Below, piece after piece: positions 5,770-47,178 of a stretch of 64,000 nucleotides of DNA. The DNA is from Candidatus Methanomethylophilaceae archaeon (GTDB lineage Archaea > Thermoplasmatota > Thermoplasmata > Methanomassiliicoccales > Methanomethylophilaceae), in NCBI GenBank assembly GCA_050944155.1, contig JBMNQN010000002.1:32001-96000 (forward strand), in the 5' to 3' direction. The stretch's first letter is position 1. Every line of letters begins with the position of its first letter. Both the position numbers and the translations under genes were made by a program. Below the pieces are notes generated by a model. The model ran no database searches. It was not told where the DNA came from and was given only the letters and a program-made list of their open reading frames with translations.

Positions 5770-5990
5770 CTTGGCGACCACATGTTCTGTGGTCTCTGAT
5801 GCCGCGATGATGGAGAGTCAAGATCTCCGCTTCGGCGTGTTCTCTTGAACTCTGACGTTCGATGCTACGAATGTTCTGTTAGACGGAGCATTCTAACGAG
5901 TGAGCCGTTTGACAGGACAGCGGTGAAACATGGTAAACTGCCAGTTTCTATTTCATCCATCCAAGACGATACAAAAAGTCATAGGATTTG

Positions 5991-7460
<1,470 letters not shown>

Positions 7461-39027: not shown

Positions 39028-42000
39028 TTACGCCTCGCGTATTTTGGCCTTTATCAGCCAGAGGTCAGACTTCAGATTCGGGTCGGTTTTCATGGACTTG
39101 GGAAGTAGCACGCTCGGGCAGTCCTCTATTCTGATTCCGGTGTTGACTTCCCAGTTTCCCGTGTCTTTTCCCAGAACCGCGCAGAGTCCGGATATGTTGC
39201 AGGATACGTAAGCTCCGGCTCTGACCGTCGGAACAATGTCGGTTCCTCCGAGGAATCCGGGCGTGGCCATTCCGGTGTAAACGGAAACCGCCAAATCCAC
39301 GTCGTCGAACGGTATTTTGCTTCCGTCGATTCCGTACGGATTCTCCATGTTGAACAGCAGCGCCTCGATTTCTCCGACTATGTATTTCAGAGTGTTGCCT
39401 ACGGTTTCCGAATCGATGGAAAGTGCGATTCTTATTCCCGTGGCGGAAGCCCCCGCCGCGTCGCTCACGTCGAAGGAGACGAAAAGGGAAGCCTCCACCA
39501 TGCACCCCGCAATCATGTCGATCGTCGAAGATATGGCGTCCTGAATGGTTCTCTGAAGGAACGCCGAAAGGTCTTCGGTGCCGTCAAGGACCCCGTCCAT
39601 CTCTTCCAGGGCTCTGATGGCCGAGTCCTTGAATATTTTTTTCATGTAACCCTTCATCATGTCTCCGTTCACCAGTCCTCCACAGTTCCCCTCTCCGGGG
39701 GTTCCTTTGGCGAATGTCCAGTCCACCGCTCCGTCGGCCACTCTCTGCCAGGTATAGGAGCTGTTGTTCGTATCGGTGAAGACGGGAGTCTCGTCGACGA
39801 TCTTTCCTTCTTTGTCTCTGAGAACGACTTTCTCTCCGTTCAGAGCGCCGTTCTTTCCGTTCACCAGAACCACATGATCGTCGAGAGGCACGAGCAGTCT
39901 TTCGTGAGGTGCCAGCACAGTCTCTCCCAGGTACATTTTCTTCTTTATTTCGTTGGTCCCGGCGCTTATGGAGTAACCGGAAATATCCGCGGTTTCGAAC
40001 GACGAGTTATAGATTTCCACCCACTCGGCCCCTTTGTCGTCCCCGGGAGGATTGGACTCGACTTCGTTTATCACGACGCCCTCTTCGAAGGGAACGTTGT
40101 ATTTGATTTCCAGTCCAGCATCGAGACTTCCCTTGAGACCCAGAGCGGGAAGGGGTATGTTGGAAATTGCGGTTCCAATACCCTCTATGTCGGAAAGTCT
40201 GACTCCCGTTTCCCTGTACTGAACCACTTCGGGCATAGCGATATCGAAAGACGTTCCCCTGACTTCGCCCTCTATCGTAACCAGATGTTTCATGGATTTC
40301 ATCAGAGGGTCGAATTTCATCTTCAGATTCCACTCCTTTCCTTTGAGCGAAGCGTCCCCCGTAAGGAAGAAATCCTTTCCCGACTGGGTATCCTTTTCTT
40401 TGATGGTCAGGCCGCTTTTCAACTTAAGTCCGCTGATTTCTCCGGAAAGGCTCACGGTTACTATGTTGCGGACATTTTTGGCCATGGAAACAATATCGAA
40501 GGAGAAGGTCAGCGCAAGACCCAGGAAGGAAATTCCCACGGTCTGTTTCTTCATGGTGGCTTTGAATATGTATTCGGTCATATTGACGAATCCCCCTATG
40601 GAACGGTTCATCATCGAGTCGAGATACTTTTCCGCGAATTCTTTCAGCTCCGCCATAGGCCCTATGATTGTGTCGTAAATGCGTTCGATAACTTTCGAAA
40701 CATATTTCGACAGTTCGAGGAGCGCGGAATTTATCAGAACCACAAGTTCCCTCAGCATGCCCACGATTTTTCTCAGAGGTTCGAGCAGGGGTTCCAGAGC
40801 TTTCACCAGAAGGGCCCAGCCGTCGCTGAAAATCGTGTTCGTCGGCGTATAGGAAGAAACTCCGGAAAGACCCCATCCGCTGACCACGGCAATCTTTATG
40901 TCTACGTCGATCGGAACGCTGCTCCGCATGGCTGAATCGTTAAGACCCAGTACGGAAGAAATGTCTCCGGTCCCGCTCGCCGTATAATCCAGACTGTCTT
41001 TGAGGGAAACCCTGAAAACGGTACAGAATGCGGCTCCCTTTTTCTCGTTGAATCCCACGTGGTGGACGCAGTCCTTCAGGTTTTCGTTGGGTCCGTACAC
41101 CCGTATGTCCGGATTCAGCTTATCGGCAATCTTTATCTTTTCCTTGGTTTCCGAGTGTTTGTCCCTGAGAACGAAACTGTCCGATCCCGGCATTTTAATC
41201 ACGCCGCAGTACGGATTCATGTCCATGTTGCGGCACATCTCTCCGCACATGTTCCACATGCGTTCGGGAATGTCGTCCACGACCGAAATCATCGGCATGA
41301 TTTTTTCGCAGATCATGGTCATGAATTTTTTGACCATTCCGCTCTGTCCTCCCGGAACCTTAAGCATCGAGTCATAACGCTGGCACATCTCTTCGGCGGC
41401 GTGTTTGTATTCCTCCAGAAGTTCTTCGTTGCAGTAGGCATCCATGGCCTTTTTACAGAATGCGAGTCTTTCGTTTATGTCGAAAAACGCGGCGTCTTCC
41501 GATGCGGCCCACGACGTGTTTGCTCTTAACCTCATGTTACTTTTGAACTGGGAGATTCCGAACACTTCGTCTTTGTGGTTTTTGATCTTTTCCGCTATGG
41601 CCGAACAGAACGGATCGAAAATCGTTTGGTTGTTTATCGACGTTTTCATGAACTTTTCAATTTCCGATTCGAGTTTTCCCAGGGCTGCGCCGATCCCGGT
41701 TTCTATGCTCTTCGAGAACGTTACGCTGTCCGTGCCGTCCACTTTTATTCTGACTGAAAACGCTGTTTTGTCGGCGGCTACGTTGATTGCCGCGGTATGA
41801 AGGATGCTTCGCATCCATTCGGTTATTTCGTTCGTTCCGAATCTGTATTCGCTCTTGAACTTGCACAATCCCTCCCATGCAAGAACGTCCACGTCGGGAT
41901 AGGGTACAGTTACGTATTCGCCTCCGGTCCTGAGGGTTTTGACCTCTCCGTCGACGGTTTTGGAAACCGAAATCTCCGGAACGTAATATTTTGCTGCTTT

Positions 42001-43077
42001 TCCGTTGTACAGGTAACGGTATTCCGCTTCGGAATATCCGCAGCCTTCCATGATTTCCCTTATGTAGGGCGAGGCCGAAAGGGTTTCTTTCTTGGTAATG
42101 AACGAAACCAAAGAGTCCCAGGCGTTTCTGACCTTGTCCGAAGCCTTGTCTATGAAATCGGCCGCTATGTTTCCGCAGAAATAATCCGCCCATCTCAGTA
42201 CGATTTCGTCCGTCGCGGACATGAGGGCCTGAGCGTATACGGCTCCCAAATCCACTGTGAGGTATCCGTCTTCGGCAATGCCGTCGGCAAGATCCAGTTT
42301 CTCGAAACCGCGGAACGTCCCGTCGGAAGAGTCTCTGAAATTCGTCATTTCCAGTGCGGAGACGCAGTCGCGGTATGATTTGCGGACGTCTTCCTTGGTA
42401 AGAATCTGTGCGGTTCCCATATTTCCGTTGGCAGCCAGAGACCCGTACCCATTGATGACTCTCTGTTGTGCCAGTGCGGTAAGCTGGTAGGTCATCATCT
42501 GCGAGAGTATCGACCCTTCGCCGGTAAGGGAAAGTTCGAAAAGAGATCCCTGTTCCGCGACCAGAGGCAGGGCGCAGCTGCCGTCCGAGTTTATCGTTAT
42601 TGTTTTTTCCGCCGACGCGGAATCGCACTCGAAGGAAGCTTTGAATCTGCCGGAAGCCCCCAGATAAGAAGGAACGTAGCTTCCCTCGGCAACTTTCATG
42701 TTCCTGGAAACCAGATTGACGGAAAATTCCGAAACCGTTATCCTGACGCATCCGCAGTACGACGGAAACTGAAGTTCCATCCATTTTTCGGCGTCGGTTT
42801 CGAATTTTTCCGCCCTCTCTTTCAGCGTGCCTCCGTCGGGGTCGTTCCCGACGGACATAATCAGTTCTCCCAAACCTCTGTTGACGAAAATCTCCGCATC
42901 CCGCATTGCGCGTCCGACCGTTTCCGTTTCCTTTTCGACGTTTCCGGCTCTGTCGTCTGCGTCGCCTATCTGCGAGCTCACCACTCCGTATCCCAGCGCT
43001 ATTACCAGAATCGTGACTGCTATTATAGCGAAAGGCATGCTCCCTTTTCTGTTTCCCGTACCGCGGATTTTTCTCAT
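39028..43077 (-). CDS. Very large secreted/membrane-anchored protein with prepilin-like N-terminus and lamin-tail domain
   Basis: MRKI...NRKG|SMPFAIIAVTILVIALG; VVINEVESNP...EWVEIYN...DISGY lamin-tail signature. Confidence 0.8.
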   Translation of the reverse strand: MRKIRGTGNRKGSMPFAIIAVTILVIALGYGVVSSQIGDADDRAGNVEKETETVGRAMRDAEIFVNRGLGELIMSVGNDPDGGTLKERAEKFETDAEKWMELQFPSYCGCVRITVSEFSVNLVSRNMKVAEGSYVPSYLGASGRFKASFECDSASAEKTITINSDGSCALPLVAEQGSLFELSLTGEGSILSQMMTYQLTALAQQRVINGYGSLAANGNMGTAQILTKEDVRKSYRDCVSALEMTNFRDSSDGTFRGFEKLDLADGIAEDGYLTVDLGAVYAQALMSATDEIVLRWADYFCGNIAADFIDKASDKVRNAWDSLVSFITKKETLSASPYIREIMEGCGYSEAEYRYLYNGKAAKYYVPEISVSKTVDGEVKTLRTGGEYVTVPYPDVDVLAWEGLCKFKSEYRFGTNEITEWMRSILHTAAINVAADKTAFSVRIKVDGTDSVTFSKSIETGIGAALGKLESEIEKFMKTSINNQTIFDPFCSAIAEKIKNHKDEVFGISQFKSNMRLRANTSWAASEDAAFFDINERLAFCKKAMDAYCNEELLEEYKHAAEEMCQRYDSMLKVPGGQSGMVKKFMTMICEKIMPMISVVDDIPERMWNMCGEMCRNMDMNPYCGVIKMPGSDSFVLRDKHSETKEKIKIADKLNPDIRVYGPNENLKDCVHHVGFNEKKGAAFCTVFRVSLKDSLDYTASGTGDISSVLGLNDSAMRSSVPIDVDIKIAVVSGWGLSGVSSYTPTNTIFSDGWALLVKALEPLLEPLRKIVGMLRELVVLINSALLELSKYVSKVIERIYDTIIGPMAELKEFAEKYLDSMMNRSIGGFVNMTEYIFKATMKKQTVGISFLGLALTFSFDIVSMAKNVRNIVTVSLSGEISGLKLKSGLTIKEKDTQSGKDFFLTGDASLKGKEWNLKMKFDPLMKSMKHLVTIEGEVRGTSFDIAMPEVVQYRETGVRLSDIEGIGTAISNIPLPALGLKGSLDAGLEIKYNVPFEEGVVINEVESNPPGDDKGAEWVEIYNSSFETADISGYSISAGTNEIKKKMYLGETVLAPHERLLVPLDDHVVLVNGKNGALNGEKVVLRDKEGKIVDETPVFTDTNNSSYTWQRVADGAVDWTFAKGTPGEGNCGGLVNGDMMKGYMKKIFKDSAIRALEEMDGVLDGTEDLSAFLQRTIQDAISSTIDMIAGCMVEASLFVSFDVSDAAGASATGIRIALSIDSETVGNTLKYIVGEIEALLFNMENPYGIDGSKIPFDDVDLAVSVYTGMATPGFLGGTDIVPTVRAGAYVSCNISGLCAVLGKDTGNWEVNTGIRIEDCPSVLLPKSMKTDPNLKSDLWLIKAKIREA

Positions 43078-43206
43078 TATCGGGTTATCCGCGGGCAGGA
43101 GACTTAAGACGGGCAACAGCAGTTAGTATAACCGGGACCGGAAACCCGTAAAACATACTATAAATAAGAAGCATTATACTTGACCGAATTACATCGAGGC
43201 TCAGAA

Positions 43207-44829
43207 ATGACATCGACTACAGCACCTAGCGCGCTTCAGAAGGGACTTCCCAAAAAAACGGAATCACTGTGTCCGGAATGCGGAAAGCTCGTAGAGGCGA
43301 CGATTTACGAGAAGGACGGGAAGGTATTCATGGACAAGGAATGTCCGGAACACGGCAAGTTTTCCGACATTTATTGGTCGGACGTCGATGCCTATCTCAG
43401 AGCGGAATATTTCGCCTATGACGGAGTGGGGCTCAGAAATCCCCACGACAAATCCCTTGCCGAGGGAGAAAACGTCAACTTCATGATTTCGGGCAAGCGG
43501 GTGGACGTGAAGTCCTGCACGGCGTTGGCTCTCATAGATCTGACCAACAGATGCAACATGAACTGCCCCATCTGTTTTGCCAACGCAAACCAGGCGGGAT
43601 ACGTGTACGAACCTTCCTACGAGGAAGTCGTGGCGATGATGGAAGCCCTCCGTGCCGAGGAGCCGATCAAATGTACCGCGCTGCAGTTCTCCGGAGGCGA
43701 GCCCACGGTGCACCCGAGACTCGTCGACATAATAAAGAAATCCAAGGAGCTCAAGTTCGCCCAGGTTCAGGTGGCGACCAACGGGATATCCTTCGCCAAG
43801 AATTACGAACTCCTGAAACAGTGCAAACTCGCGGGCCTGAACACGATATACCTTTCTTTCGACGGCGTCACTGACGACATATATCTCCAGGCCAGAGACA
43901 GAAAGATGTTCGACATCAAACTCAAAGTTATCGAGAACTGCAGAAGGCTCAAAGAAGAAGTGGGAAGCTCCCCGTCGATCGTTCTCGTACCCACCCTCGT
44001 AAGGGGAGTCAACGACCACCAGGTCGGCGATATCGTGAAATTCGCTTTCGACAATTCCGACGTCGTACGCGGAGTAAACTTCCAGCCGGTCGCGTTTACC
44101 GGAAGGATAACCAGAGAGGAACTCGAGAAGGGAAGGATAACCCTGACCGATCTCGTGAATCTTTTCATAGAGCAGACCGGATACACCGAACCGGAAGACT
44201 GGTATCCCGTTCCCGTCGTCGCTCCCGTTTCGAGATTCGCATCCGAATTCCTGGACCAGCAGAAAGTTACCTTCACGGCGCACCCCCACTGCGGTCTCGC
44301 CACGTATCTTTTCAAATCGGACGACGGCAACGTAATACCCATGCCCCATTTCATAGACGTGAAAAAGTTCTCCGACGGACTGGACGAACTTGCGTCGAAA
44401 ATGTCCGACTCCAAATTCAAGAAATTCTACGCCACGAAGGTCCTGAAACTGCTGAACAAGTGCATAGACGAAAGCAAGATTCCGGACGGAATGTCCAAGA
44501 AAAAGTTCATCAAAATGCTGTACAGCGTCATGGGAAACAAATCCAAGAAGAATCTCGCATCCTTCTCGTGGAGAGCCATGTACATAGGGGCCATGCACTT
44601 CCAGGATTCGTACAACTACGATTTGGCGAGAGTGGAACGCTGCGCCATCCACTATATAACTCCCGACCTGAAGGTCATACCTTTCTGCGCCTACAACGGA
44701 GGGCCCGAATACCGTTCGAAAGTCGAAGAGAAGTTTTCGATGCCCCTTGCGGAGTGGAAAGTCAAGCATAAAGAAGAAGCAAAGGCACTGGAGGAAGCTC
44801 TCGTCGTGCCCGAAGAACAGAAAGAATGA
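43207..44829 (+). CDS. tes: Tetraether lipid synthase (Tes/GDGT-MAS) family radical SAM enzyme
   Basis: SLCPEC...CPEHG rubredoxin-like start, TNRCNMNCPICFANAN, RGVNFQP, HPHCG, MHFQD.YN.D..RV.RC.IHY.TPD...IPFC; lipid gene context. Confidence 0.88.
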   Translation: MTSTTAPSALQKGLPKKTESLCPECGKLVEATIYEKDGKVFMDKECPEHGKFSDIYWSDVDAYLRAEYFAYDGVGLRNPHDKSLAEGENVNFMISGKRVDVKSCTALALIDLTNRCNMNCPICFANANQAGYVYEPSYEEVVAMMEALRAEEPIKCTALQFSGGEPTVHPRLVDIIKKSKELKFAQVQVATNGISFAKNYELLKQCKLAGLNTIYLSFDGVTDDIYLQARDRKMFDIKLKVIENCRRLKEEVGSSPSIVLVPTLVRGVNDHQVGDIVKFAFDNSDVVRGVNFQPVAFTGRITREELEKGRITLTDLVNLFIEQTGYTEPEDWYPVPVVAPVSRFASEFLDQQKVTFTAHPHCGLATYLFKSDDGNVIPMPHFIDVKKFSDGLDELASKMSDSKFKKFYATKVLKLLNKCIDESKIPDGMSKKKFIKMLYSVMGNKSKKNLASFSWRAMYIGAMHFQDSYNYDLARVERCAIHYITPDLKVIPFCAYNGGPEYRSKVEEKFSMPLAEWKVKHKEEAKALEEALVVPEEQKE

Positions 44830-44839
44830 GGTTGAAAAG

Positions 44840-45010
44840 ATGACGATATTGGTTAATGCCGACAAATGCCTGCACTGCGGAGGATGTGCCGGGTCGTGTC
44901 CGAAAAATGCGATATTCATGAACGATTTCGTTCTCGAATTCAGCAGCGAATGCAATTCCTGTGGCAGATGCGTTAAAATATGCCCCGTTGCGGCGCTGAG
45001 GATGGAGTGA
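44840..45010 (+). CDS. 2[4Fe-4S] ferredoxin
   Basis: CLHCGGCAGSCP and CNSCGRCVKICP. Confidence 0.92.
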   Translation: MTILVNADKCLHCGGCAGSCPKNAIFMNDFVLEFSSECNSCGRCVKICPVAALRME

Positions 45011-45015
45011 TTCCC

Positions 45016-46212
45016 GTGAAGACGTACACATGCGACATTGTGGTGGTGGGAGCCGGCCCCGGAGGGAGCATGGCCGCCAAATTCTGCGCTAAAGCGGGAC
45101 TCGATACCATACTCATAGAGAAGAAAGCCGAAATAGGATCTCCCCTGAGATGTGCCGAAGGCGTATCCAAAAAATGGCTGGAAGAGGTGGGAATCGAACC
45201 GGATCCGGCATGGATCTGTGCCGACATGGCCGGAGCGGTGATACGCTCTCCCGGAGGATACACCTTCCAGCTGGACGAAAGCCGTGCGGGTTCAGAAGTG
45301 GGATACGTTCTCGAAAGACATCTGTTCGACAAAGCTCTCGCCCGCGACGCGGCGGAAGCCGGCGCTAAGATAATGATGCGCACTTCCTGTACCGGAGTCG
45401 TAAGAGACAAGAACGGAAAGATTACCGGTATCGAGGCGAGAAGTTTCGGCGAAAAAATCATAATCAACGCGAAATGCATAGTCGCGGCAGACGGATACGA
45501 GTCCCAGGTGGGCAGATGGGCCGGAATACCCACGGTTCAGAAGTCGAGCGACATCGTAACCTGTATCCAGTACAGACTCACCAACATAGACGTCAGCCAG
45601 GAATTCTGCGAGTTCGTCATCGGAAACGAGATTGCTCCCGGAGGATACCTTTGGATATTCCCCAAGGGAAACCGTACCGCCAACGTGGGACTGGGCGTTT
45701 CCGCAAGCAGATGCAAAATCCCCGCTGCGCCGAAACACTATCTGGATAAGTTCATATCATCCGACGACCGCCTCAAGAACGGACAGATTCTCGAGATATG
45801 CGGAGGAATGGTTACGACCAACCCCGGTCTCGATTCCGCCATCGCCGACAACATAATTCTGGTGGGCGACGCCGCGAGGATAATCGATCCGATTACGGGC
45901 GGAGGAATATGCCACGCTTGCAGAACCGGAATGTACGCCGGAAAGGTTCTCGCCGAGTGCGCAAAGAAGAACGACTTTTCCGAAAAAGCCCTCAAACCCT
46001 ACGAAAAGATGTGGAGGGACAGGATGGAAGACAAAATCTACAGAAACTGGATGGCCAAAGAGAGGCTCAACGAGATCGACGACAAGACCATGGACGATCT
46101 TGTCCAGATCATCGGCGATTCCACACTGACCGAGATGAACGTCTACAACCTGCTTAAAATCATCAAGGAAAAGTATCCGAAAGTCGTGGAAGGTTTCGAA
46201 GACCTTATCTGA
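45016..46212 (+). CDS. Digeranylgeranylglycerophospholipid (geranylgeranyl) reductase
   Basis: GAGPGG, RCAEG, PGGYLWIFPKG (PxxYxWxFP), GDAA..PITGGGI; GTG start. Confidence 0.92.
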   Translation: MKTYTCDIVVVGAGPGGSMAAKFCAKAGLDTILIEKKAEIGSPLRCAEGVSKKWLEEVGIEPDPAWICADMAGAVIRSPGGYTFQLDESRAGSEVGYVLERHLFDKALARDAAEAGAKIMMRTSCTGVVRDKNGKITGIEARSFGEKIIINAKCIVAADGYESQVGRWAGIPTVQKSSDIVTCIQYRLTNIDVSQEFCEFVIGNEIAPGGYLWIFPKGNRTANVGLGVSASRCKIPAAPKHYLDKFISSDDRLKNGQILEICGGMVTTNPGLDSAIADNIILVGDAARIIDPITGGGICHACRTGMYAGKVLAECAKKNDFSEKALKPYEKMWRDRMEDKIYRNWMAKERLNEIDDKTMDDLVQIIGDSTLTEMNVYNLLKIIKEKYPKVVEGFEDLI

Positions 46213-46248: not shown

Positions 46249-47178
46249 TTATTCGGCCCTCACGCCGGGTTCTCCGGTTTTTACCGTTATGGGGGTTCCG
46301 CCGCGGGAAGATATCGCTTTGCTTACCTTTTCGGGTTCGTCTGTCAGCGCCAACATGCTTCCTCCGCCTCCCGCCCCGGTGAGTTTCGCCCCGTAGGAAT
46401 AATCGGATACGGCATCCACCAGCTTGTTCAGTTCGGGCCCCGAGACACCGAGAATGGAAAGGAGTTTGTGATCTTTGGTCATCAGGCCTCCGAGTTTCAC
46501 CCTATCCCCTTTCTTTATCGCGTCCATGCCTTCGAGGGTGACTGTTCCTATCTCGTCGATTATGTCTTTTGCAAAACTGTTTCTTTCTTTGTATCTCCGT
46601 ACCTTTTCCACCAGAGGTCCGGTCAGAGCTTTCTTTCCCGTGTAGCCTATGACGAAAGTCATCTCCGGAACATCGAGACCGCATATGTCCCAGACGTTCT
46701 TTCCCCGTTCTACTCTCCAAAGGAGATTTTCCGGCTCCGGTGCGTTCACGGCGATGCCCATTCCGTGCACTGAAGCGGAAGTATCCATGGGACTGCCGAT
46801 TCCCTGAACCGAATATTCGGCTTCGTAGGCTTCTTTGGCGACGGCTTCGGAATCCGTCGGTTCTCCCAGAAGACTGCGTACGGCGAAGGAAAACGAGGCG
46901 GCAAGGGCCGCCGAGGACCCCAGACCGGAACCGGACGGTATGTCGCTCTCCGTCGTTATTTCGATATCCGGATGACCGTGGACGTCCAGTACGGAAAGTA
47001 TGTGGGGATGAAGTGCCAGGGCGTTTTCTTCTCCGTTAATCGTCACCCTGTCGCTCTTCGATACGGTACACTTGAAACGTCTGTCGATTGCCACCGCTAC
47101 GGCTGGTTTTCCGAAGACGACTGCGTGTTCGCCGAGTATGACGAATTTTCCGGGTGCCGATGCGGATGCGGTTTTCAT
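46249..47178 (-). CDS. mvk: Mevalonate kinase
   Basis: APGK..L.GEHAVV, PSGSGLGSSAA, KLTGAGGGG. Confidence 0.95.
   Translation of the reverse strand: MKTASASAPGKFVILGEHAVVFGKPAVAVAIDRRFKCTVSKSDRVTINGEENALALHPHILSVLDVHGHPDIEITTESDIPSGSGLGSSAALAASFSFAVRSLLGEPTDSEAVAKEAYEAEYSVQGIGSPMDTSASVHGMGIAVNAPEPENLLWRVERGKNVWDICGLDVPEMTFVIGYTGKKALTGPLVEKVRRYKERNSFAKDIIDEIGTVTLEGMDAIKKGDRVKLGGLMTKDHKLLSILGVSGPELNKLVDAVSDYSYGAKLTGAGGGGSMLALTDEPEKVSKAISSRGGTPITVKTGEPGVRAE

Follow-up and report, generated by a model that had tools for sequence, protein, structure and literature searches.

Tetraether synthase lacking the ligands of the N-terminal [4Fe-4S] cluster, encoded next to a ferredoxin and a geranylgeranyl reductase in a Methanomethylophilaceae archaeon

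Tetraether synthase (Tes) joins the ends of two phytanyl chains, yielding glycerol dialkyl glycerol tetraether (GDGT) and macrocyclic archaeol, and for the enzyme MJ0619 a mechanism with a C-S intermediate has been described (Lloyd et al. 2022). We analysed a tes gene located within a 64,000-nucleotide stretch (the window) of the genome of a Candidatus Methanomethylophilaceae archaeon, a methanogen of gut type (assembly GCA_050944155.1, contig JBMNQN010000002.1, positions 32,001 to 96,000), together with the genes for a ferredoxin and a geranylgeranyl reductase (GGR) that follow it. Besides the radical S-adenosylmethionine (SAM) cluster, [Fe4S4]RS, MJ0619 holds a rubredoxin-like iron and two auxiliary clusters, [Fe4S4]N and [Fe4S4]C, in its N-terminal and C-terminal parts. 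The genes and the metal-site regions of the window are as follows, in window coordinates, with protein lengths in amino acids (aa).

43207..44829, + strand: tes (tetraether/GDGT/macrocyclic archaeol synthase), 540 aa plus stop; a TTG at 43180 could also serve as start
43270..43353, + strand: rubredoxin-like mononuclear Fe site of Tes, C22-x2-C25-x20-C46-x2-H49 (CPEC...CPEH), aligning to MJ0619 C9/C12/C33/H36
43453..43521, + strand: segment at the place of the [Fe4S4]N ligand loop, residues 83-105, SLAEGENVNFMISGKRVDVKSCT; CPxxCGLCxxH in other Tes
43552..43575, + strand: radical SAM motif C116-x3-C120-x2-C123, from Pfam, the 7TOL alignment and invariant columns
44281..44688, + strand: C-terminal auxiliary cluster region with H359, C362, M463 (labile Met), C479, Y483 and C494, from the 7TOL alignment and invariant columns
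44840..45010, + strand: 2x[4Fe-4S] ferredoxin, 56 aa, with two CxxCxxCxxxCP motifs; Fer4 families (Pfam)
45007..46212, + strand: GGR, geranylgeranyl (digeranylgeranylglycerophospholipid) reductase, 401 aa; PF22578 GGR_cat at 5.5e-31 and TIGR02032 at 228.5 bits (cut-off 158.8)

The original prediction that the first gene encodes a Tes was upheld by the family score, by alignment to a solved structure and by the predicted fold. The protein scored 610.7 bits against the NCBIfam equivalog NF045702 (cut-off 450) over residues 17-513, and its Pfam matches were Radical_SAM (PF04055, 1.1e-23) and Zn_ribbon_HMPTM. The closest solved structure was MJ0619 GDGT-MAS (PDB 7TOL; E 5.9e-146, residues 14-522 aligned by HMMER). 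The AlphaFold2 model (predicted local distance difference test, pLDDT, 91.0; predicted template-modelling score, pTM, 0.92) was compared by Foldseek with 7TOM and 7TOL, giving template-modelling scores by query (TMq) of 0.85 and 0.84, by target (TMt) of 0.92, and root-mean-square deviations of 2.2 and 2.4 Å. The window Tes was thus like MJ0619 (7TOL, 7TOM; Lloyd et al. 2022) in its four-domain fold and over its full length (46% identity), and the partial TIM barrel of the radical SAM enzymes was recognized from the CX3CX2C motif and the fold match to 7TOM.

The rubredoxin-like CPEC/CPEH site, the radical SAM motif and the C-terminal cysteines had all been predicted to be retained, and this was borne out. 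In MJ0619 the ligands of the rubredoxin-like iron follow the pattern C9-X2-C12-X20-C33-X2-H36, [Fe4S4]C carries the labile Met439, and the reaction centre consists of 5'-deoxyadenosine (5'-dA) and [Fe4S4]C (Lloyd et al. 2022). With MJ0619 numbering counted by hand in the HMMER alignment to 7TOL (chain number equal to native number plus 20), the rubredoxin-like C/C/C/H set, the radical SAM motif and the C-terminal Cys were all found in the window Tes, and M463 and Y483 corresponded to Met439 and to the conserved Tyr459. In 96 aligned Tes, C22, C25, C46, H49, C116, C120, C123, H359, C362, M463, C479, Y483 and C494 were invariant.

Unlike MJ0619, however, the window Tes carried none of the [Fe4S4]N ligands. 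These are C73, C77, C80 and a conserved His (H83) in MJ0619 (Lloyd et al. 2022), and the CPxDCGLCxxH motif given for MJ0619 in the original prediction proved correct as a [4Fe-4S] ligand by the 7TOL alignment and by that publication. In the residue-level HMMER alignment to 7TOL, GCPYDCGLCPNH of MJ0619 was paired with EGENVNFMISGKRVD of the window Tes, and the four ligands fell on G87, I94, K97 and D100 in a segment 3 residues longer by pairwise comparison. The predicted lack of ligands for the auxiliary N-terminal cluster was thereby confirmed, with no Cys or His at any of the four positions. No C..C..C..H pattern was detected within the 45 residues ahead of the SAM motif either. Residues 91-94 and 97-100 were predicted by AlphaFold2 as the strands of a beta-hairpin (block pLDDT 95 and 92). 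The expected cofactors are two [4Fe-4S] clusters and one Fe for the window Tes, against three and one for MJ0619. Both its score on the NCBI equivalog model and all of its catalytic features make the window protein a Tes, and only at [Fe4S4]N does it fail to agree with the characterised member.

C104 in 'KSCT' and the sporadic Cys of relatives were considered as replacement ligands and rejected for lack of conservation; C104 is not a conserved ligand, since no more than 24 of the 40 clade members have Cys there. Nor is the loss an artefact of assembly or sequencing, because it is common to relatives of 59-82% identity. Within the clade of Tes lacking the motif, mean pairwise identity of the replacement segment was 46%, compared with 65% for the whole protein, while the same segment in motif-bearing Tes gave 65% against 53% for the whole protein. 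This drop in conservation fits a metal site that has turned into a plain structural element, as judged from the sequences. One early-branching member of the motif-less clade (L025:1498-3054, genome G024) carries CDETCEDC (C-x3-C-x2-C), without the His, just 5' of the hairpin, which may be a remnant or may have arisen by chance.

The distribution of the loss was followed by scoring the 45-50 residues that precede the SAM motif for the regular expression C.{2,4}C..C..H, with the alignment checked by eye, and by a quick maximum-likelihood tree (IQ-TREE, LG+G4) from which the motif columns had been removed; support was given by SH-aLRT (Shimodaira-Hasegawa-like approximate likelihood-ratio test), with no bootstraps. 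A Tes match was present in all of the 41 sampled genomes of the order, intact in all but two, of which the first carries a TGA inside the gene and the second is divided over two contigs. In the order sample of 30 loci, 25 (families f1, the window's own, and f5) lacked the motif, and five (f7 and f4) carried CPxxCGLCxLH. The motif was missing from 80/80 named loci of Methanomethylophilaceae type, and it was kept in the remaining six sampled families of the order. The 40 motif-less tree rows came together in a single clade (SH-aLRT 99), which is nested within the Methanomassiliicoccales that bear the motif, with an unremarkable stem branch of 0.12. The f5 sequence L023 branched first in this clade, and its replacement is exactly as long as the cluster loop; the other members have 3-7 additional residues upstream of the replacement. 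The ancestor that Methanomethylophilaceae share with one sister family would have swapped the 16-residue loop of the surface-exposed [Fe4S4]N for a cysteine-free segment of the same length, which is predicted to fold as a beta-hairpin. No statement of such a lineage-specific loss of [Fe4S4]N was found in passages from papers that deal with both tetraether synthase and rubredoxin.

That the gene has lost its function, as a relic that is inactive or in decay within a reduced, host-associated genome, we find hardly credible. The window's own genome is small (1.04 Mb in 27 contigs), and a relative of the same genus (G014) has a degraded second Tes copy with stops. Against decay, the 80 named loci all hold open reading frames (ORFs) of 59-82% identity in which the catalytic ligands are invariant, the position in the operon is conserved, and the fold is predicted with confidence. 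From the match in 41/41 genomes, its status as the only Tes of the window's own genome and the unremarkable stem branch, tes appears to be under selection and not decaying. The second copy in G014 (C1:162826-164574, L347) is fragmented by TAG and TAA stops and looks like a decaying duplicate. Another second copy, in a Methanogranum metagenome-assembled genome (MAG; L085 = L129, OY780938.1, 96943-104559), is intact, lacks the motif and is 64% identical to the window Tes, and neither a ferredoxin nor GGR lies within about 3 kb of it. No other canonical Tes without the motif was found apart from a ferredoxin.

As the sites for the SAM cluster, for the rubredoxin-like Fe and for the C-terminal cluster, labile Met included, are intact, tetraether synthesis is most likely retained by the motif-less Tes. 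In the organism of the window, Tes would form the biphytanyl C-C bond of GDGT or macrocyclic archaeol. The enzyme would still couple phytanyl termini by cleaving SAM twice and passing through a C-S intermediate on [Fe4S4]C, as in MJ0619. Two electrons would reach [Fe4S4]RS without [Fe4S4]N; their source could be the rubredoxin-like iron, which is retained, or a soluble donor acting directly. The available text of Lloyd et al. (2022) gives no distances that separate the rubredoxin Fe, the SAM cluster and [Fe4S4]N from one another.

Altered chemistry was also considered, in which the enzyme without [Fe4S4]N gives changed products (mainly macrocyclic archaeol or glycerol trialkyl glycerol tetraether, GTGT) or acts on substrates with unusual backbones. 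Homologs do differ in output, as MA_1114 gave only traces of macrocyclic archaeol and MA_1486 gave GDGT (Zeng et al. 2022), and butanetriol and pentanetriol tetraethers are reported for a species of Methanomassiliicoccales, Methanomassiliicoccus luminyensis. The catalysis-linked residues and the fold of the lipid pocket are nevertheless all conserved, and [Fe4S4]N is placed on the surface of MJ0619, apart from the reaction centre (Lloyd et al. 2022). The window Tes is also the only Tes of its 1.04-Mb genome. The tie to butanetriol and pentanetriol tetraethers drawn in the original prediction found no support: these lipids were reported for M. luminyensis, the description of M. alvi mentions tetraethers for M. 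luminyensis only, and the six other families of the order keep the motif. We regard a change of chemistry as improbable.

Loss of the motif was then surveyed at the level of the class Thermoplasmata. Of 151 genomes searched, 142 gave a match at E <= 1e-80, with the unpublished genome G124 counted in, and one to several loci were fetched for each of 31 families. The motif was lost in f1, f5 and f17, degraded in f13 and f16 (first Cys to Phe), and kept in 26 families; the tree demands at least three changes of motif state (f1+f5, f13+f16 and f17). The f17 loss is a clean deletion, and the named records nearest to this family come from MAGs of Aciduliprofundum sp., at 97% and 95% identity, and of DHVE2. 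Among DHVE2/Aciduliprofundum loci that include the N-terminal region, all three Cys were gone in 18/18, and both f17 genomes checked (G050, G098) hold a single Tes. These proteins (L062, L089, L172-L189) are like the window Tes in having lost the three N-cluster Cys, in keeping the rubredoxin-like site, in the tes-ferredoxin-GGR operon and, in the two genomes checked, in being the sole Tes; they are unlike it in that the loss was independent, as indicated by their separate place in the tree, and came about by deletion of about 7-15 residues and not by substitution. Cultured A. boonei is cited as a tetraether producer, with reference to Schouten 2008 (PMC11214058). The loss of the motif in f17, the single Tes and the tetraethers of A. 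boonei suggest that tetraethers can be made in vivo without [Fe4S4]N. As far as sequences can tell, [Fe4S4]N appears to be a dispensable accessory.

Proteins without the motif also occur outside the canonical Tes. The P0020-like clade is like the window Tes in being full length, 35-41% identical to it and equipped with the rubredoxin-like site, and the N-cluster Cys were missing from all 78 scored loci. It differs as a deep paralogue, with GGR in 0/80 loci and a ferredoxin-like ORF in only 3/80. It appears paralogous because one assembly (JAOZSQ01; L216, L305) holds it beside a canonical, motif-bearing Tes. Its hosts are Thermoplasmatota, Aenigmatarchaeota, Woesearchaeota, Hadarchaeota and Undinarchaeota, including several DPANN phyla, and MAGs labelled as candidate phyla radiation (CPR). 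Among 150 Tes-related cluster representatives the SAM motif was located in 114, of which 89 were with the N-cluster motif, 21, P0020 among them, without it and four truncated; the other 36 representatives, and two of the 80 P0020-type loci, were left uncounted as their SAM motif was not located. Since [Fe4S4]N is absent from further clades that match Tes models, it is not family-defining in the NCBI models.

TrsS, a radical SAM (seleno)protein (NF045646), is like the window Tes in its N-terminal architecture of rubredoxin-like site, N-cluster and radical SAM domain, with 36-41% identity over Tes residues 17-335. In contrast, TrsS is about 456 aa long with another C-terminus and keeps CPLDCGLCxxH, and the window Tes reached only 311.5 bits against NF045646, below the cut-off of 490. 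A paralogue of about 456 aa is found in many Methanomassiliicoccales (L346:214-1584 in G030, and similar places in 20 other relatives); the scanned one, L346, is TrsS (538.5 bits) and keeps CPLDCGLCxxH. Searching the window's own genome (G000) with the Tes query gave no second Tes or TrsS-like match.

Some Tes-related contigs stand under unexpected labels. Long contigs under the names Parcubacteria, Nealsonbacteria or Minisyncoccales hold motif-less Tes-like genes 79-95% identical to P0020 (L251-L254), which may be due to transfer into CPR bacteria or to a binning error. Contigs with archaeal tes-ferredoxin-GGR or Tes-like genes (L168, L169, L204, L208, L211, L217, L298, L310) bear bacterial labels (Dialister hominis, Prevotella hominis, Bacteroides salyersiae, Eggerthellaceae, Anaerovoracaceae and Saccharibacteria) and are probably mis-binned.

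The original prediction placed the ferredoxin 10 nt downstream of tes, followed by GGR with the mevalonate kinase gene convergent, and the ORF coordinates and protein families agree with this layout. The ferredoxin stop and the GTG start of GGR overlap by 4 nt (GTGA), and this overlap, together with the relatives, served to assign the start codon. With a gap of 10 nt and an overlap of 4 nt, the three genes may well be co-translated. The remaining features around them are as follows.

43159..43167, + strand: TATA-box-like element TATAAATAA, 40-48 nt 5' of the tes ATG; putative promoter element, read from the sequence
43196-43199, + strand: GAGG 5' of tes, 7 nt ahead of the ATG at 43207
46249..47178, - strand: mevalonate kinase, convergent with GGR, 309 aa; TIGR00549 at 187.8 bits (cut-off 163.05)

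The ATG at 43207 is the probable tes start, and not the TTG at 43180, because of the spacing of TATAAATAA and GAGG. Divergent from tes, an ORF of 1362 aa (39028-43116, - strand) has an N-terminal hydrophobic stretch and may encode a large surface protein; it gave no NCBIfam match at E <= 0.001.

In the window, Tes, the 2x[4Fe-4S] ferredoxin and GGR are immediate neighbours, as required of a tes-ferredoxin-GGR operon. The arrangement is already known, having been published for Methanosarcina acetivorans. By published description (Zeng 2022; PMC12042123), the same three genes are adjacent there as MA_1486-MA_1485-MA_1484, and the ferredoxin is needed by GGR. That MA_1486 adjoins MA_1485, the ferredoxin 'required to activate' the GGR MA_1484, was a clue to Tes (Zeng et al. 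2022), and ma1484-1485 was handled as 'GGR with its ferredoxin', with citation of Isobe et al. 2014 (PMC12042123). Synteny supports the ferredoxin as the probable electron donor of GGR in the window operon as well.

The original prediction inferred that a trans-acting ferredoxin might replace the lost cluster. In this explanation the operon ferredoxin docks near the vacated site and delivers the electrons formerly relayed by [Fe4S4]N; in an extended form, a ferredoxin co-translated with Tes was already there and allowed repeated loss of the built-in cluster. According to the published work, Tes consumes one electron for each SAM that it cleaves, with Ti citrate as the source in vitro, and the rubredoxin and [Fe4S4]N domains of MJ0619 are at the protein surface (Lloyd et al. 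2022). Co-translation, as suggested by the 10-nt gap and the 4-nt overlap, would also suit such a partner. A complex prediction for Tes and ferredoxin gave a score of 0.00 (mark 0.32), and was used neither for nor against binding.

The ferredoxin ORF started -7 to +68 nt from the Tes stop in 78/91 loci of the class, and ferredoxin lay directly 3' of Tes in 30/30 loci of the order (two cut by contig ends), including the five that bear the motif. The tes-ferredoxin-GGR order was found in 26/31 Thermoplasmata families, namely in 5/5 with the motif lost or degraded and in 21/26 with the motif kept. The two traits were cross-tabulated over the 94 tree rows that bear both.

Motif absent, ferredoxin adjacent: 41 rows
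Motif present, ferredoxin adjacent: 36 rows
Motif present, ferredoxin not adjacent: 16 rows
Motif absent, ferredoxin not adjacent: 1 row (L085, the second copy of the Methanogranum MAG)

Mapping of the motif loss against ferredoxin adjacency on the tree, as proposed in the original prediction, gave only three independent contrasts of motif state, in which ferredoxin linkage was unchanged (p = 1). Since these contrasts show no change of linkage, the linkage is older than the loss and does not track it. Ferredoxin linkage being the majority state and predating the loss, its association with the loss carries no statistical weight, and the replacement in trans is not supported, as 21 of the 26 linked families bear the motif. 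From its distribution, the tes-ferredoxin-GGR operon is ancestral in Thermoplasmata, and it is found also in Methanosarcina.

The ferredoxin stays with GGR, and not with Tes, when the genes are separated. In genomes in which Tes is split off (f9, f11, f14, f20, f22), the ferredoxin ORF was directly 5' of GGR in 5/8 GGR loci, and it also abuts the GGR start in L335 (f15) and L331 (f14). Conversely, the motif-less second Tes of the Methanogranum MAG (L085/L129) has no ferredoxin or GGR nearby, and in the motif-less P0020-like clade a ferredoxin-like ORF lies within 2 kb in only 3/80 loci. In one of these three (L303:1690-2001), the end of a 2x[4Fe-4S] ferredoxin-like ORF coincides with the start of the Tes-like gene. 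L076 and L077 were taken up as tes-ferredoxin pairs without GGR, and L076 was rejected, as GGR follows an insertion of about 2 kb; this insertion (L076:4280-6290, G126) holds several short ORFs between ferredoxin and GGR, and the reading of the ferredoxin region appears to be partly repeated near 5775-6227. The caveat of the original prediction that the ferredoxin may serve only GGR is thus the better-supported part, fitting both synteny and Zeng et al. (2022): the ferredoxin appears to belong to GGR rather than to replace a lost cluster.

The best explanation of these observations, which we hold to be probable, is that the window Tes is an active ortholog with a predicted beta-hairpin in place of a dispensable surface cluster, encoded in an ancestral lipid operon with a ferredoxin for GGR. 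The operon ferredoxin would reduce GGR and would not have been recruited in response to the loss of the cluster. Several points weigh against this explanation. A literature search gave no lipid data for Methanomethylophilaceae. Every loss in canonical Tes lies in a ferredoxin-linked operon, that is, all three independent losses or degradations (f1+f5, f13+f16, f17), and none is seen in families without a Tes-adjacent ferredoxin, just as compensation predicts; among the tree rows without Tes-adjacent ferredoxin, 16/16 keep the motif if the second copy L085 is set aside. With three events, this one-sided pattern cannot be told apart from a chance result (C(26,5)/C(31,5) = 0.39; contrast test p = 1). 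The Aciduliprofundum argument, in addition, is based on MAGs of 95-97% identity to f17 and not on the sequence of the cultured strain.

It is accordingly unlikely, though less so than a change of chemistry, that the ferredoxin compensates in trans for the missing cluster. Equally doubtful is the wider proposal that the ferredoxin, where co-transcribed, is the physiological electron-entry module of both Tes and GGR, so that a redundant [Fe4S4]N was shed at least three times and kept where Tes stands alone. If true, an intramolecular relay cluster would have been replaced by a diffusible partner.

Tes makes the GDGT lipids that are used as palaeoclimate proxies, and its structure shows three auxiliary metal sites, with a role assigned for [Fe4S4]C only. 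Natural Tes orthologs without [Fe4S4]N, with all else kept, offer a ready-made test of the function of that cluster, and one motif-less lineage has a cultured, tetraether-producing relative. The survey corrects the tempting inference of compensation, in that tes-ferredoxin-GGR would be ancestral across Thermoplasmata and the ferredoxin tracks GGR. The motif-less orthologs predict that [Fe4S4]N is dispensable for C-C bond formation by Tes.

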